NCBI GenBank assembly: GCA_964444815.1
Contig: CAYUIR010000001.1
Span: 78,031-142,030 of the forward strand
Origin: an uncultured Bdellovibrionales bacterium
GTDB lineage: Bacteria > Patescibacteriota > Minisyncoccia > Moranbacterales > UBA1568
DNA: 64,000 nucleotides
Direction: 5' to 3'
This document shows positions 14,542-36,406 of the stretch, piece by piece (position 1 is the stretch's first letter; the number at the start of each line of letters is the position of its first letter). A program made the position numbers and the translations under genes. The notes beneath the pieces were generated by a model. The model was not told the DNA's origin and did no database searches. It saw only the letters and a program-made list of their open reading frames with translations.

Positions 14542-14560
14542 CAATAAAAATTTGACATGA

Positions 14561-14602
14561 GACTCCCCTGGCGATTTTTTGAAAAAAGAGGGGAGTCTTT
14601 TT
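14561..14602 (+). terminator. rho-independent terminator after the hydrolase gene
   Basis: GACTCCCCT (14561-69) pairs with AGGGGAGTC (14589-97), followed by TTTTTA. Confidence 0.75.
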
Positions 14603-14856
14603 ATGCTCCGTACTATTGATAATACATCAAAATATTCGGATCGTTTTGATGGTATCTTTATCTCATGTCTGAGTATTCATGATTCAAGCAAAGGAGGAGG
14701 GATAGATGTATACCCCCGTAGATTCAAATGCCTCACAATCGATTATACGCATTCGTATATTCATAAAAATACAAAGCGCCAGTGGAGTACGATGATTGTA
14801 CGTGGTAGCGGATTATCTCTCTCTGGCTCTTCCTTACGTAATGTCCTATAAGTTAC

Positions 14857-14900
14857 ATTGTGAGACGTATAGACAATACTTCTCTCAAATAAGCCACGGA
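14857..14900 (+). repeat. direct repeat R1 (left copy) flanking AT-rich island I
   Basis: ATTGTGAGACGTATAGACAATACTTCTCTCAAATAAGCCACGGA. 42/44 identical to 16922-16965, with weaker similarity for about 150 nt further. Confidence 0.85.
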
Positions 14901-15095
14901 TCAAAGCTCGGTCTGGATATACCCTGTACCCATGACATACGCCACGCGTCTTTCCCCTACTACGATGGTCGGAAAAAACGAGAGTGGTATTTTGAATAAT
15001 AAAACAGAATGTAGCAAAAAATCTTCGAAAAAATCACTTCAATTTCGTAACCACCCCCCCCTACTTTTTCTTGCTTTGCGGGGGATTTACTAGAA

Positions 15096-15125
15096 AATAA
15101 AAAAGCCATCACTACAGATAGATGG
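15096..15125 (-). terminator. terminator of the ImmA-like/TM operon
   Basis: CCATC (15106-10) pairs with GATGG (15121-25). On the minus strand it is followed by a T-run. Confidence 0.6.
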
Positions 15126-15141
15126 TTTCTATAGGTCGACT

Positions 15142-15525
15142 CTATTTATTAGAATACGGATGGTTATTATATTTAATATCTGTAAAAATCCATCTCACCA
15201 TTATTTTTACGATTAAGACCGTTTCTCCCAGAGTGCCTAATGTTAATACTGAAAGAAAAGGCTGTAAATCAAAGACGTATGGTGAGTCTTTATACGTATA
15301 AAATATTACCCATATAAATACATACGTGATAATATTCTGCACCAACAGAAAAATAGGAAAAGCATATGCAAAAAACTTTCTGATGGTAAGTTTAAAAGCG
15401 GCATCTTTTTGCCATGTCTCCATTATAGAGGCAATGGCCTGATCTTTTTTGCTAGAAAAAACTTCCGCTTGTTCGGAGTAACTGAAATCACCGTTGTCTT
15501 CTGTTATTTGTGGTTCAGCAGGCAT
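15142..15525 (-). CDS. small membrane protein (2-3 TM), translationally coupled to the ImmA-like protease
   Basis: 127 aa. Acidic N-terminus then hydrophobic helices (FAYAFPIFLLVQNIITYVFIWVIFY; FLSVLTLGTLGETVLIV). Start overlaps the upstream stop by 11 nt. Confidence 0.6.
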   Translation of the reverse strand: MPAEPQITEDNGDFSYSEQAEVFSSKKDQAIASIMETWQKDAAFKLTIRKFFAYAFPIFLLVQNIITYVFIWVIFYTYKDSPYVFDLQPFLSVLTLGTLGETVLIVKIMVRWIFTDIKYNNHPYSNK

Positions 15526-16027
15526 AATCAGTTAATCCAAGATTTTTCAATCTATAAGCCATTGCAGTTTGGGAAACACCAAAGACACTTGCAATTAATG
15601 TTACATCCTTGGTTTTTGACCACCATATTTCTATTAAAGGTTTCGGCATCAGTAGACTTGCAGCAAAAGTATTTGCTTCTGCTTCTTCAGTCTTATCCTG
15701 CATTTCTAGATTCACAGTGTCTAGTCTCCAAAAAGTGTCTTTTTGTTTATCTTTGTGTAAGATGTAGTGCCCTAATTCATGAGCAATAGTAAATGACACT
15801 CTAGGAAAATACTCACCATCTGCAACATATATAGTTTTTGATACTCGATCTAGCTGTCCTAAAGCATCGGGTTCAGAAAAGTTAACCTTTTTTAAGGACA
15901 GGCCATATTTTTTAGCAACTTTCCCCAGATCTACTGGCGGAACAATTTGTTCTTCGCCATAAACTTCCGCAAGAACATCGGCTGCTTGAGCTTCTAAAGT
16001 ATTGAGTTTTTCTTGGCTGAGTTTCAT
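15515..16027 (-). CDS. ImmA/IrrE-family (COG2856-like) zinc metallopeptidase
   Basis: HEXXH as AHELGHYILH, downstream EEAEANTFAASLLMP, and a C-terminal VFGVSQTAMAYRLKNLGL tail typical of the family. Confidence 0.75.
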   Translation of the reverse strand: MKLSQEKLNTLEAQAADVLAEVYGEEQIVPPVDLGKVAKKYGLSLKKVNFSEPDALGQLDRVSKTIYVADGEYFPRVSFTIAHELGHYILHKDKQKDTFWRLDTVNLEMQDKTEEAEANTFAASLLMPKPLIEIWWSKTKDVTLIASVFGVSQTAMAYRLKNLGLTDYAC

Positions 16028-16111
16028 ATATAACTAGTTTACTACGCTTTCAGTATACCACAGGGATTGTTCCCTTTCCGCCTATTGAGTAGGTGTTATT
16101 TTTTCTATCTA

Positions 16112-16786
16112 CTAAGGAGTTGAAGATGGCGTCGTAGTAGGAATTTTATTTGGAAACTCGTAGATGATTTTTAGTAACATTTCAACAAAAGAGAGAAGAT
16201 TTTTTGCTTCTTCTTCAGTCATGATTGTAATCTCGTGATTAGCTTCATTTCCCTTTTGACGAATGTGGTCTACCCACCCTTTCGATGCCGGTGGAATATA
16301 GTTCTCATCAGATAGATATTCAACGTATTGAAGAAAGTTCAAATTTTGTGCGGCACCTTTATCTACAGCAACATGCATGAGTAGTTTTCGGCAAGATAGT
16401 ACCGTTGCAGTAAATGCATTTTTCGAATAAGCATCCCTTGCTTCTGTATAGAGATTTTTTACACCGTTGTCCGTAATTCCATTTACATCCCCACCTGGCC
16501 TAATACCAGGAGTTTGTTTTCTAGCTGCATCAAAAAATGTTGGCCTATAACAGTGATGGCAAATGTAAATTTCACCTTTTCTATCTCCACGACCATCTTC
16601 AAGTTCCCCTCGAAAAAAACCAACATTTGAAGCTAAGGAATTATTACAATAGCCACATGTATAGCTTTTTGAATTGAGAATACTCGTATTACTCCAAAAA
16701 TAGCTCATTCCATTAAAACGCTCAATATATTTATATCTTATTATACCACCAAAAATATAGTTGTAATATTTGATAAAATATGACAT
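16112..16786 (-). CDS. zinc-ribbon + DUF4145-like domain protein
   Basis: CGYC...CHHC ribbon, then a helical C-terminal domain (LSCRKLLMHVAVDKGA...WVDHIRQKGNEANHE...EEAKNLLSFVEMLLKIIYE) recalled as DUF4145. The start could be the second MSYF (16708). Confidence 0.55.
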   Translation of the reverse strand: MSYFIKYYNYIFGGIIRYKYIERFNGMSYFWSNTSILNSKSYTCGYCNNSLASNVGFFRGELEDGRGDRKGEIYICHHCYRPTFFDAARKQTPGIRPGGDVNGITDNGVKNLYTEARDAYSKNAFTATVLSCRKLLMHVAVDKGAAQNLNFLQYVEYLSDENYIPPASKGWVDHIRQKGNEANHEITIMTEEEAKNLLSFVEMLLKIIYEFPNKIPTTTPSSTP

Positions 16787-16827
16787 ATTCTTAAAATTAT
16801 ATTTATGTTCCTTTATTTAAGCCTTTT

Positions 16828-16851
16828 GTCCTTTAAATGAAATTAAAGGAC
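16828..16851. promoter_or_regulatory. 9-bp perfect inverted repeat upstream of the DUF4145 gene
   Basis: GTCCTTTAA-ATGAAA-TTAAAGGAC, 42 nt upstream of ATG 16786. Confidence 0.5.
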
Positions 16852-16921
16852 ATTTTTGTTTTAGGAGAAAACCGACTCAATTTATTTCTATTTTTACTGC
16901 CCTGCTGGTCGTTTAACTAGA

Positions 16922-16965
16922 ATTGTGAGACGTATAAACAATACTTCTCTCAAACAAGCCACGGA
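16922..16965 (+). repeat. direct repeat R2 (right copy) flanking AT-rich island I
   Basis: ATTGTGAGACGTATAAACAATACTTCTCTCAAACAAGCCACGGA. 42/44 identical to R1. Confidence 0.85.
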
Positions 16966-17127
16966 CTAAAAAGATACAGTACCGCATGTGTATTGCGCTC
17001 GATTTCCTGTTTATCCCCCTGCCCAGATGGCGTCAGATTTCAATGAGTACTTTTAAATATTGAATGAGGAAAGTTTCGGAAATTTTATGGTAAAAAATAT
17101 CGCGAGTTTTATATGCTACCCCCTACT

Positions 17128-17159
17128 GAAAATGAAAATTCCGGTGGTGGAGTCCGGAA
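17128..17159 (-). terminator. hairpin + T-run downstream of the 39-aa ORF
   Basis: TTCCGG (17139-44) pairs with CCGGAA (17154-59). The minus strand continues TTTTCATTTTC. Confidence 0.55.
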
Positions 17160-17207
17160 ATTAAAAAAAGCCCCGTGAATACGGAGCTTGGCGTTCAATT
17201 TGATTCT

Positions 17208-17327
17208 TTAGCGGAAGGCTCGGAGGACCAAGATGACGAGGATGACGACTACAGCGAGGCCGACACAACCACAGCCACGTCGACGACGGAGGCCACCTCC
17301 TATACTATTACGAAATCTTCCAAACAT
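17208..17327 (-). CDS. possible 39-aa basic/hydrophobic peptide (MFGRFRNSIGGGLRRRRGCGCVGLAVVVILVILVLRAFR)
   Basis: ATG 17327, stop 17208. Sits between two minus-strand terminators. No clear Shine-Dalgarno. An acidic ORF (17175-17384) lies antisense to it. Confidence 0.3.
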   Translation of the reverse strand: MFGRFRNSIGGGLRRRRGCGCVGLAVVVILVILVLRAFR

Positions 17328-17390
17328 ATGAGCATGCAAATGACTTATTTTGTATACAATAAGTATATCACAACTCCAATCTGAGTAAGA

Positions 17391-17418
17391 AAAAACCGGT
17401 CGGTACGCGATGCGTACC
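17391..17418 (-). terminator. terminator of the GGDEF gene
   Basis: GGTACGC-GAT-GCGTACC (17402-17418). The minus strand continues GACCGGTTTTTTTC. Confidence 0.75.
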
Positions 17419-17433
17419 TTCCGGTGGTCGGTT

Positions 17434-33627: not shown

Positions 33628-34149
33628 TTAAATTTTCTCTTTTAGAATTTTGTTGATGAACTCTAGCTTTCTTCGATAATATTCTCGCGTTGATAGGCCG
33701 TTGCCAGACTCTTTCAATCTTCTGTATTCTTCCAGCTTGGCTGGGTCGCTTCGCAGGATAGTCTCAAATTTTACCAAGTTTTTCCAGTCGACACTCTCTT
33801 CATTGATCGGGAAAATGTCGATATGTTTGCCGTTTTCCTCTGTAACAAACCGGGCTCGTTTCAGAGGGTAGAAACTTCTGGGCTCACCAAAGCGTGACTT
33901 CAAAGCCTCGACTAACGCTTCAAATCTCGCTGGACTTACTGGGAGGTACACATCAATTTCGTCCTGACCAGATATACCGAGACTCGTCGCGCCATGATGC
34001 TCTATCCTGACATCCTGTCCCAAAGCCTCCTGTATCTTGGCTCTTACCCTTTGAAACTTCTCTTCCGCCGTAATATCAAATGGAACTATCGTGATAGTTT
34101 TGATATCCGATAGGCGTGCAATCCACTTTTCCTGTTCAGGTGTTAACAT
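33628..34149 (-). CDS. GrpB-like nucleotidyltransferase-fold protein
   Basis: IEHHGATSLGISGQDEIDVYLPV...HIDIFP pattern recalled from the GrpB family. The start overlaps the upstream stop (TAATG). Confidence 0.6.
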   Translation of the reverse strand: MLTPEQEKWIARLSDIKTITIVPFDITAEEKFQRVRAKIQEALGQDVRIEHHGATSLGISGQDEIDVYLPVSPARFEALVEALKSRFGEPRSFYPLKRARFVTEENGKHIDIFPINEESVDWKNLVKFETILRSDPAKLEEYRRLKESGNGLSTREYYRRKLEFINKILKEKI

Positions 34150-34439
34150 TATTTACTTTTTCTAAGCTTCACTTCTAGAATAAGTGCTGAACCAATAAAG
34201 AGTATGAAGTCAAAAAGAAGCTTAGCTACTGAAAAGCCATACTCTTTTTCAAAAGTGTAGGCACCTATGTAGACTTCATTCGGACCTTCCCAAATAAATG
34301 GGAGCGGAAAACCCACTATTACTTTTGGTGAGTCTGCAGTAAGCATAAGAGGAATTAGCTGCAAAGTTAGCCCGATGAGTATTGTGACAATCAATAGAAA
34401 GAGTTTACTTGGTCTCATAGAACTATGGCCTCTCACCAT
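34149..34439 (-). CDS. small membrane protein (96 aa, 3 TM)
   Basis: Hydrophobic helices. Coupled to the GrpB-like gene by a 1-nt overlap. AT-rich. Confidence 0.5.
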   Translation of the reverse strand: MVRGHSSMRPSKLFLLIVTILIGLTLQLIPLMLTADSPKVIVGFPLPFIWEGPNEVYIGAYTFEKEYGFSVAKLLFDFILFIGSALILEVKLRKSK

Positions 34440-34476
34440 TCTTGTTGGCGATAGAGAGGATGAAGTTTATATTAAG

Positions 34477-35025
34477 CTAAGCAATAGTTATAAGCTGAAC
34501 TCCGGCTGGAATTTTTGCTTCTACAATCTCATGAACAAGGCCTATGTTCTTCGCTTCTTCTGAGGAGATAATCCCCCCTTTTCTCATTAAGTCATCAATT
34601 ACTTTATAATCAATCCCGGTAAAGTCACTAACATTCTTTGCGATGTTCTCTCTGTCTCGTCTAAGAGTAGCCAATCTTTCACCTAACTGCTCTTCAGTTA
34701 AGCTGGACTGCCCGAAGTTTGCCATGACCCCGTGAAATAAAAAGGATGAGTTTTTCTGAGCGAGACGCTTAGTGCCAGCAGAAAATATCACGCTTGCAAT
34801 TGAATCAATTTGTCCAACATTATGGACATTAATTGGTATCGGCGAAGACTTGATAAGAGTCGCAATATTCATACCATCAAAAACGCTTCCACCGGGAGAC
34901 GAGATAAGAATATTAATTTCAGTAAATTGGCTATTGATAGCAGTTGTAATTGCACCAAGAAGCTGTCCAGCAGACTGAGAGTTTACGCCAGCCTGAAAAA
35001 TTATATATAGTTGCTTCATATCCAT
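34477..35025 (-). CDS. ClpP-fold serine protease-like protein (stand-alone)
   Basis: ISSPGGSVFDG, GQIDSIASVIF (compare ClpP GQAASMG), FLFHGV (compare MIHQP), EEAKNIGLVHEIV (compare EA..YGL.D). Confidence 0.65.
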   Translation of the reverse strand: MDMKQLYIIFQAGVNSQSAGQLLGAITTAINSQFTEINILISSPGGSVFDGMNIATLIKSSPIPINVHNVGQIDSIASVIFSAGTKRLAQKNSSFLFHGVMANFGQSSLTEEQLGERLATLRRDRENIAKNVSDFTGIDYKVIDDLMRKGGIISSEEAKNIGLVHEIVEAKIPAGVQLITIA

Positions 35026-35690
35026 TATTGCTTAGCTATCTTTCTAATTACATCTACTGCCGGAGAATTATAAATAAATTCTACCTGCGAACTTACCTCC
35101 GTAAGAATACTGTGTGCATTTCCAGTTGCCGTAAACTCGATGTGGATCTGTCCGGGTTGTGGCATGGGTTGACCGGGGACATTCATTGCTTGTAAACCAG
35201 GTTGAACAATAACTGGTGCGCTTGTTGTAGACTGAACTGGAGAAATCTTCTGATCTGCAATTCTTCTAATCAAATAGTCAAGAAACTCTACACTGGAATA
35301 GAATCGACTTATAGTATCTGCTCCGGTTTCCTCAAGTTCTGAGATGAACAAATGTATACTATTGTTCCAACTATTTGTTGGTAAAAGGGTGTGTGATAAT
35401 CGATAGGTATGGTTATTTAATCTGGCTTCTCTAATCTTTTGTTCCGCACTACGTATTTCTTGGAGGATGAGACTAGCAATATCGCGTTTCTGGTCCTGCT
35501 TTTGTTTCAAATACAAATAGTAAGCAACAAATGCTGTAAAAAGAGTTAGGACAGCCACGAAAAACTGAGAATTAAGTGCCAACCAAACTTTTGGAAAGTT
35601 TTCAATTACGGCACTTAATATAAAGATTGCCCCAGCTAATAGCGCCGATGAAGTAACTACATATGTTGCAATGTTAAATACTTTTTTCAT
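35025..35690 (-). CDS. 2-TM membrane protein with helical/Pro-Gln-rich ectodomain
   Basis: 221 aa, two N-terminal TM helices. The stop overlaps the ClpP-like ATG by 1 nt. Confidence 0.5.
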   Translation of the reverse strand: MKKVFNIATYVVTSSALLAGAIFILSAVIENFPKVWLALNSQFFVAVLTLFTAFVAYYLYLKQKQDQKRDIASLILQEIRSAEQKIREARLNNHTYRLSHTLLPTNSWNNSIHLFISELEETGADTISRFYSSVEFLDYLIRRIADQKISPVQSTTSAPVIVQPGLQAMNVPGQPMPQPGQIHIEFTATGNAHSILTEVSSQVEFIYNSPAVDVIRKIAKQ

Positions 35691-35716
35691 ACAGTTTAGT
35701 ATTTAGTTAATTATAT

Positions 35717-35775
35717 AAAAGCGGGGCGAAATGCCCCGCTTTTATGCTACTCTTATTTCTTTTCTTCTTCAACTT
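35717..35775 (-). repeat. copy r1 of the dnaK 3' end + terminator repeat
   Basis: AAAAGCGGGGC-GAAAT-GCCCCGCTTTTATGCTAC-TCTTATTTC..., also serving as terminator of the 217-aa gene. Confidence 0.8.
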
Positions 35776-36406
35776 TGCTTTCAGGCGCCCCGTCTGAAGC
35801 CGAGGTAGGCTCAGATTGTACTACTTCTGAAAGCTGTGGTCTTGATGGCACATATGGGGATAAGAGATTCTCACTCCCCTTATGTTCCGGCGACAATTGA
35901 GTGAGATTCTTAGGTTCACCGTTCATATTATTAAAGTTAATGGCAGAAAAGATAAGAATTGAAACAAGGGCGAAAATAAATGTCGATATAGTTATATAGT
36001 TTGTTCTTGTGATACTTTTACCGTACTTCCGTGGAGGAATAAACCCAACAATACTACTACTATTCATAAACATCCGGTCCATGGGAGAGATATCTGCATA
36101 CCACTTGTCTAACGATAGAATTTGATCTTCACTTTGCCAAGTGCTCAACAGATACCCAATTATCTGTGATACTATTGAAATGCTCAGTAGTATCCAAGAA
36201 ATAAAGAGAAGTGATGTGAAATCAAAATGGAGATTCGTATTAAATACGACATTAACAGAGAGAACAAAAACACCTGTAACTAGGTAGAGCAACATCTTAT
36301 CAAGAGCGTTTTGAGAAGAAAGATGATGTGTACGGGCCTGCTCTCTAGTTCTGTTGTAATAATCTTGAGCCTCTTCAAAACTTAAGTTTGGCATATGTTT
36401 ATCCAA
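35753..36406 (-). CDS. polytopic membrane protein (217 aa)
   Basis: 3-4 TM helices and a C-terminal acidic/Ser-rich tail ending EEEKK. AT-rich. Confidence 0.5.
   Translation of the reverse strand: MDKHMPNLSFEEAQDYYNRTREQARTHHLSSQNALDKMLLYLVTGVFVLSVNVVFNTNLHFDFTSLLFISWILLSISIVSQIIGYLLSTWQSEDQILSLDKWYADISPMDRMFMNSSSIVGFIPPRKYGKSITRTNYITISTFIFALVSILIFSAINFNNMNGEPKNLTQLSPEHKGSENLLSPYVPSRPQLSEVVQSEPTSASDGAPESKVEEEKK

Follow-up and report, generated by a model that had tools for sequence, protein, structure and literature searches.

In a 64,000-nt stretch of DNA from the chromosome of an uncultured bacterium (hereafter the window), two overlapping genes encode a 170-aa zinc peptidase of the ImmA/IrrE type and a 127-aa membrane protein (Table 1). 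The original prediction, made from the sequence, had described them as an HEXXH protease gene that overlaps the gene of its 127-aa partner by 11 nt, with no helix-turn-helix (HTH) gene nearby, and had not recognised the pair as a described system. The open reading frames (ORFs) and the sequence agreed with the coordinates, the overlap, and the nature of both proteins, and a search for an HTH in the flanking genes (by Pfam) and in seven small ORFs from the intergenic regions on either side found none. The presumed novelty, in contrast, did not hold. The pair has the same architecture as RosmerTA of Gordonia phage Kita, and both of its proteins appear to be homologous to the Kita proteins, as described below. 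The pair represents a new and divergent member of the RosmerTA family of the Kita type rather than a new system.

Table 1. Positions of the gene pair and of the surrounding features in the window.
Feature	Position	Strand	Description
rmrA-like gene	15515-16027	(-)	170-aa ORF containing FTIAHELGHYILH, with an intact HELGH
rmrT-like gene	15142-15525	(-)	127-aa ORF; predicted membrane-depolarising toxin
Overlap, 11 nt	15515-15525	(-)	protease stop TGA at 15517-15515, toxin ATG at 15525-15523
Possible extended -10 element, TGGTATACT	16060-16052	(-)	read by eye; 24 nt 5' of the protease ATG
Terminator-like imperfect hairpin, then U-run	~15143-15094	(-)	from RNA folding; directly 3' of the toxin stop
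DUF4145 gene	16112-16786	(-)	224 aa; Pfam 3.6e-11; PADLOC PD-T7-4 1.8e-7; PHROG 1305
63-nt imperfect direct repeat	14843-14905 and 16908-16970		brackets the cassette of three genes (toxin, protease, DUF4145)

The overlap between the protease and toxin genes suggests translational coupling, and the spacing between the two genes was −59 to +11 nt in 40 of 44 related pairs. The pair had also been credited with its own promoter and terminator, a claim that the analysis upheld in part. An extended −10 element (TGGTATACT) could be read manually, and RNA folding gave a hairpin with its stem at positions 3–44 of the folded stretch, followed by UUUUUAUUUU, with a z of only −1.6 over the whole 106 nt. 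The consensus scans, however, found neither: no −35/−10 pair was detected near TGGTATACT in the sigma-70 promoter scan, and the hairpin 3′ of the toxin gene was not detected in the terminator scan. TGGTATACT is regarded here as a putative promoter element of the pair, which may also be co-transcribed with the upstream DUF4145 gene.

The 170-aa protein matched the Pfam family Peptidase_M78 (PF06114) with an E-value of 1.5e-16. In PADLOC, its best match was capP (3.8e-26; positions 4–154 of the 242-position model), and several RmrA models came next, with E-values reaching 5e-15; these models, 357–400 positions in length, were matched over their peptidase part only (approximately positions 158–300). 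The AlphaFold2 model of the protease (pLDDT, 88.8) gave CapP (7t5t), IrrE (3dti), and PprI (8sln) as the top folds in the PDB, all with a probability of 1.0. The fold matches cover only the peptidase domain, with TM-scores of 0.61–0.66 when normalised by the query and 0.34–0.48 when normalised by the target; for CapP, the protein corresponds to residues 80–177 of the 291-residue 7t5t chain, and the TM-scores were 0.61 by the query and 0.40 by the target. The protease of the window consists of the peptidase domain only, having neither an HTH domain nor a C-terminal GAF-like sensor domain, and a fused HTH domain was found in none of its 118 homologues. The residues H83, E84, and H87 were invariant among 49 relatives of the protease.

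The partner had been expected to possess an acidic N-terminus and two or three transmembrane (TM) helices. The acidic N-terminus was seen (six acidic and two basic residues among the first 28), and the hydropathy profile indicated two TM segments, not three, at residues ~51–78 and 90–110. The AlphaFold2 model of the 127-aa protein (pLDDT, 88.4) is a helical hairpin composed of H15–76 and H81–112. Basic residues flank both TM helices on their N- and C-terminal sides, suggesting an N-in/C-in hairpin, and both conserved soluble motifs would therefore face the cytoplasm, within reach of the protease. A word-indexed protein search using the TM protein as the query found only itself and one relative. 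The family emerged from a full HMMER scan of 1.84 billion representatives, which found 125 members of ~110–150 aa at E ≤ 1e-3, so that the family comprises at least 125 cluster representatives at 50% identity. The conserved columns of the family lie in the juxtamembrane helix (D..WK..RK), in the first TM helix, TM1 (QN), in the second TM helix, TM2 (GT..ET), and in the tail (W.F.DI.Y); the N-terminal ~35 residues, which precede the conserved juxtamembrane motif, are variable and acidic. The polar residues within the TM helices (Q62-N63 in TM1 and T..ET in TM2) would be suited to helix–helix packing or to lining a pore.

No credible family was found for the 127-aa protein in Pfam, PADLOC, NCBIfam, or PHROGs (DUF4481 reached 18 bits, below the cutoff), and 77 members of its family displayed just scattered sub-threshold matches to unrelated membrane families. 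With the TM protein as the query, tblastn gave no match among 50,697 phage records, and a Foldseek search of its model against BFVD and the PDB gave nothing significant. Two of the 77 members weakly matched Pfam S_4TM, the SMODS-associated 4TM effector domain (best E-value, 6.5e-4). This match may be a faint hint, below the reliable threshold, of a link between the TM family and the membrane effectors of the cyclic-oligonucleotide-based antiphage signalling system (CBASS) type.

The association of the two genes was surveyed from both sides. On the protease side, 160 loci were fetched, each encoding a relative of the protease. A TM-family gene was located immediately downstream in all nine relatives scoring at least 110 bits and, after iteration of the hidden Markov model (HMM), in 44 of the 149 protease loci with downstream room. 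One relative with 71% identity to the protease, whose TM partner is 58% identical to that of the window, encodes an overlapping pair on a 1.5-kb contig. The TM-family match was adjacent to the protease in 52 of the 55 loci matched, which include eight loci of the same organism; among 9,207 ORFs, only four non-adjacent ones reached 15 bits, and at least one of these (in L058) was an artefact of the ORF start. In 29 further protease loci, the downstream position is occupied by other small proteins with one or two TM segments. On the TM side, five of the six members looked up (E-values of 3e-22 to 9e-4) directly follow a Peptidase_M78 gene encoding 163–171 aa, and the contig of the sixth ends at that point. 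The genes of the looked-up members often overlap the M78 gene by 4–8 nt. With the neighbourhood check run both ways (9/9 and 5/6), the homologues of the TM protein proved to be co-conserved with ImmA-like genes, and the protease and the TM protein form a genuine two-gene module.

The TM-partnered relatives also proved to be almost devoid of HTH partners. The upstream adjacent ORF encodes an Xre-type HTH protein in two of the 41 TM-partnered loci, compared to 36 of the 41 non-TM loci of the sister class. In addition, the nearest neighbour of a protease belonged to the same partner class for 32 of 46 TM-family loci, 28 of 41 HTH loci, and 21 of 29 loci with other TM proteins. In these sequence comparisons, the partner class tracks the phylogeny of the protease, with HTH partners marking other protease clades. 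The possibility that the locus is merely a decayed ImmR/ImmA or CapH/CapP pair, which has lost its HTH repressor and is followed by a fortuitous ORF, might be raised by the membership of the protease in the ImmA/IrrE/CapP family and by its location in a variable, low-GC (guanine and cytosine) island. The downstream ORF, however, is a member of a family that has at least 125 representatives and strongly conserved motifs and is co-conserved with the protease in both directions, the relative with 71% and 58% identity retains the same overlapping pair, the HTH partners belong to different protease clades, and no CBASS, integrase, or integrative and conjugative element (ICE) genes are adjacent. The two-way co-conservation and the split between HTH and TM partners effectively refute decay, to which we assign a negligible probability. 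The two outcomes named in the original prediction as refuting it, a lack of co-conservation and an HTH partner in the relatives, were thus both decided in favour of a genuine module.

The neighbours of the pair were unrelated from locus to locus: IS1595 transposases, HepT and PIN toxin–antitoxin (TA) genes, a D12 methylase, and ABC transporter genes were found in some loci, and tRNA synthetases, TsaE, and HemN in others. The pair was found in at least 10 phyla as well as in phages, the hosts being Chlamydiota, lineages of the candidate phyla radiation (CPR), Bacillota, Actinomycetota, Pseudomonadota, Acidobacteriota, Chloroflexota, Melainabacteria, Bacteroidota, and Spirochaetota. In moving about as an autonomous unit, the pair resembles TA modules. 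Two P2-like phages (L179:1992-3143 and L180:1950-3126) encode an ImmA-like protease with 33–38% identity to that of the window after the replication gene A, and the gene downstream of it encodes a different protein of 159–199 aa with TM segments. This protein may represent another class of toxin paired with the same protease.

The RosmerTA pair of Gordonia phage Kita was validated by Ernits et al. 2023 (PMC10440598). It consists of RmrA-D25 (YP_009301393), a Peptidase_M78 protein, and RmrT-D5 (YP_009301394), annotated as 'Transmembrane'. RmrT-D5 rapidly depolarises and permeabilises the membranes of E. coli, the full-length toxin is toxic alone without the protease, and the pair defends against Bas54 and Bas59 (PMC10440598). 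Canonical RosmerTA, reported by Millman et al. 2022, is a two-gene defence system of the TA type, in which the antitoxin has a Zn-peptidase domain and the toxin has no known domain; a deletion of rmrA could not be transformed, and the peptidase protein behaves as the antitoxin (10.1101/2022.05.11.491447). Our literature search on the mechanism of RosmerTA found nothing beyond these two studies.

In the Kita genome, gp32, a 178-aa M78 protein, overlaps gp33, a 119-aa protein with a C-terminal TM region, by 4 nt. A tblastn search using the protease of the window as the query found gp32 directly, and BLASTP gave an identity of 34% with an E-value of 9e-18. The lists of PADLOC matches are almost identical for Kita RmrA and the protease of the window, and neither toxin matches any PADLOC model. 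The relationship between the toxins was detected with profiles. The iterated TM-family HMM scored Kita gp33 at 24.6 bits, compared to a maximum of 13.9 in 1000 hydropathy-preserving window-shuffles. The BLAST matches of gp33 (3.5e-12 to 1e-4) were the ORFs downstream of the proteases in L145, L058, L053, and L155, which had already been placed in the TM family by the HMM and are bridges between the family and gp33. Alignment of the window family (77 sequences) by hhalign gave 69.8% against a Kita-type alignment of five sequences and 90.7% (E-value, 1.3e-6; 78 columns) against one of 33 sequences, and the 78 aligned columns extend from the juxtamembrane helix over the two TM helices to the tail (..lF). 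We thus propose, with moderate confidence, that the toxin of the window is homologous to the validated RmrT-D5. The toxin has no model in Pfam, NCBIfam, PHROGs, or PADLOC 2.0, and the protease is best called capP and only partially RmrA. Current annotation tools would miss both the window and the Kita systems, which explains why the pair was not recognised in the original prediction.

We consider it likely that the two genes constitute a TA or abortive-infection module of the RosmerTA type and of the Kita kind, in which the TM protein is the toxin and the protease is the antitoxin. The gene structure, the strict co-conservation in both directions, the lack of an HTH partner, the homology of both proteins to the Kita pair, and the intact catalytic motif come from the present analysis. 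That the toxin kills and depolarises, that the peptidase acts as its antitoxin, and that the pair defends against phages is taken from the literature on the homologues, and we infer the topology, the formation of a pore by the polar TM residues, the neutralisation by proteolysis, and the trigger. The 127-aa protein would be inserted into the inner membrane as an N-in/C-in helical hairpin and would oligomerise via its polar TM residues, resulting in depolarisation or permeabilisation of the membrane. The cytoplasmic 170-aa M78 peptidase, made first and translationally coupled to the toxin, would keep it harmless, probably by binding or cutting its conserved cytosolic juxtamembrane helix or its C-terminal tail. 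Because the HEXXH motif is invariant in the TM-partnered clade, proteolysis is argued to be a part of the mechanism. If a phage infects the cell or the module is lost, the balance between the two proteins would be disturbed and the toxin freed, and the infected cell would be stopped.

The same invariance of the HEXXH motif, which implies that proteolysis matters, may also be explained by a mechanism of the opposite sign, in which a protease switched on by infection removes the acidic N-terminal segment of an inactive pro-form and thereby releases a membrane-disrupting effector. The variable acidic N-terminus of ~35 residues, followed by the conserved juxtamembrane motif, offers a possible cleavage site for such an activation, and the relatives ImmA, IrrE, and CapP are signal-activated proteases (structures 7t5t, 3dte, and 8sln). 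The protease of the window, however, is devoid of the sensor domains by which CapP and IrrE are activated. In addition, the RosmerTA peptidase acts as an antitoxin, as the failure to transform the rmrA deletion indicates (10.1101/2022.05.11.491447), and the full-length Kita toxin needs no protease for its toxicity (PMC10440598). We therefore regard activation by cleavage as unlikely. A protease-controlled membrane effector in a toxin or abortive-infection module, as originally predicted, remains accurate insofar as the module is real and a membrane effector very plausible; it is the logic of activation that is opposed by the role of the RosmerTA peptidase as an antitoxin.

The TM protein contains no recognised toxin domain and the pair often has housekeeping genes as its neighbours, both of which would also be compatible with a non-toxic pair serving membrane signalling or regulation. 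In such a pair, the hairpin would anchor or regulate the protease or would be its regulated substrate, in the manner of anti-sigma factors, and the pair would control another cellular target instead of killing the cell. No DNA-binding or sigma-factor partner, however, was present in or near the module at any locus, and autonomous movement of a two-gene unit among unrelated contexts, phyla, and phages typifies TA and defence modules rather than integrated regulators. Given also the homology to a pair with demonstrated toxicity, a signalling function appears improbable.

Several points weigh against the assignment of the pair as a toxin and an antitoxin of the RosmerTA type. The function in this family member and in this host is assigned by analogy. 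The protease does not possess the GAF-like sensor domain of CapP and IrrE, which leaves the sensing of phages without explanation. Neutralisation of the Kita toxin by its antitoxin was only partial, and their complex could not be predicted with AlphaFold (PMC10440598). The homology of the toxin to RmrT-D5 is at the profile level only, with an aligned identity of 9%, and the composition of TM segments may inflate profile scores, although the window-shuffle controls speak against inflation. Finally, canonical RmrA (357–400 positions) possesses an N-terminal HTH and C-terminal regions, both of which are absent from the protease of the window. The N-terminal HTH and the extra regions are, however, common but not obligatory for RmrA, being also absent from the validated 178-aa RmrA of Kita.

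The assignment places a previously unannotated gene pair in a defence and TA family and provides a defined toxin family with its motifs. It also shows that the HTH-less RosmerTA of the Kita type, far from being an oddity of a phage, is a broadly distributed module whose genes are co-conserved in both directions. Stand-alone ImmA-like proteases fall into two clearly separate sets of clades, one with HTH partners and one with membrane-protein partners. The conserved cytosolic motifs of the toxin are candidate contact or cleavage sites for working out how RmrA neutralises RmrT. A bolder and rather doubtful extension is that the pairs of an HTH-less ImmA-like protease and a two-TM hairpin make up a large branch of RosmerTA that has not been catalogued. 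Such pairs comprise at least 125 toxin clusters and are spread over 10 or more phyla, among them CPR, Chlamydiota, and Melainabacteria, as well as over phages. In the proposed branch, the antitoxin would directly and continuously cleave the cytosolic juxtamembrane or tail segment of the toxin, rather than cleaving a repressor or sequestering the toxin. If true, this would be a proteolytic-antitoxin mechanism, which has not yet been demonstrated for any TA system.

The surroundings of the pair agreed with the AT-rich island and the DUF4145 neighbour that had been predicted. The GC content is 0.37 over 14542–17433, compared to ~0.49–0.51 in the flanks, where gltX and the genes of an M23 peptidase, an S9 hydrolase, a GGDEF protein, and a PD-(D/E)XK nuclease are located. 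The DUF4145 protein (Table 1) has a Cys-rich N-terminal segment (C..C ... C..C), and PD-T7-4, which it matches in PADLOC, is a single-gene anti-phage system. We rejected the DUF4145 gene as a third component of the module: it was not found beside the pair at any other locus, including that of the relative with 71% identity (L001). It is probably an independent defence gene.

In a related strain (GCA_964500505.1; L182) with the same synteny, positions 14869–17164 of the window are replaced by a single gene (L182:10374-11144), which encodes a 245-aa protein with no Pfam or PADLOC match. The inserts of both strains have a GC content of 0.37–0.39, compared to ~0.50 in the flanks, and the site between the S9-family hydrolase gene and the GGDEF gene is a strain-variable hotspot. 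The two copies of the direct repeat that flanks the cassette share 84% identity, with a 44-nt core containing two mismatches; no such repeat is expected by chance. Every contig of the same organism that covers the two positions carries both copies (L002-L006, L008, and L009), while L007 stops short of the second copy. In the related strain, only the first ~30 nt of the repeat are found at the left border of its own, different cassette, and at the right border only a weak remnant of the 3′ part. The repeat may be a recombination or att-like site for the exchange of cassettes, and the variable low-GC cassette with its PD-T7-4-like gene is suggestive of a small defence hotspot.

Some contigs of the same organism (L003:4028-4276, L007:1425-1673, and L008:3258-3506) have a called gene for an 82-aa protein, with no Pfam match, in the interval that separates the toxin gene from that of the S9 hydrolase. 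Over 6.9 kb, L003 and the window share 100% identity, and the difference therefore results from gene calling and not from sequence variation; in the window, the corresponding ~600 bp (14542–15141) contain no convincing gene. A second AT-rich island (33628–36406, reverse strand; GC content, 0.38–0.40) adjoins dnaK and contains five co-oriented genes encoding a GrpB-like protein (173 aa), a 96-aa unknown protein, a ClpP-like protease (182 aa), and two proteins, of 221 and 217 aa, that have no credible domain. This island may represent a further cassette of accessory or defence genes. The window contains two tRNA genes and no rRNA gene.

Comparison with known systems places the pair as follows. 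The proteases of ImmR/ImmA (of ICEBs1), IrrE-DdrO, and CapH/CapP share the peptidase fold and the HEXXH active site with the protease of the window. Those proteases, however, cleave an adjacent or cognate Xre-type HTH repressor, whereas the partner here is a membrane protein, and CapP and IrrE carry C-terminal sensor domains that are absent here. The hallmarks of those systems were also absent: no Xre/cI-type HTH substrate was found among the neighbouring genes and small ORFs, the pair is not located in an ICE or a prophage (no integrase is present in the 2.3-kb cassette), and no HTH, CD-NTase (CBASS nucleotidyltransferase), or effector genes of a CapH/CapP locus lie within ~4 kb on either side. 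PanT-D11/PanA, one of the systems with small type II toxins that depolarise membranes, of which PanT-D11 served as the mechanistic comparator for RmrT-D5 in the Kita study (PMC10440598), resembles the pair in having a small toxin with a C-terminal TM region and a cytoplasmic protein antitoxin, but the domain of that antitoxin is Panacea/DUF4065 and not M78. With canonical RosmerTA, the pair shares a two-gene, tight, co-oriented operon that includes a Zn-peptidase (COG2856/M78) partner with an intact HEXXH. It differs from the canonical form (PADLOC RmrA PDLC03943-03956) in that its protease corresponds to the peptidase part only and no PADLOC RmrT model matches the 127-aa protein. The toxin subfamily of the window is very divergent from that of Kita RosmerTA and has motifs of its own (QN, GT..ET, and W.F.DI.Y); the window copy is chromosomal in an uncultured bacterium and known here from its sequence, whereas that of Kita is in a phage, and the genes overlap by 11 nt here but by 4 nt in Kita. 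The two pairs are alike in their organisation, in which a stand-alone M78 protein of ~170–180 aa is encoded first and is followed, in an overlapping gene, by a protein of ~120 aa with a hydrophilic N-terminus and a C-terminal region of two TM segments.

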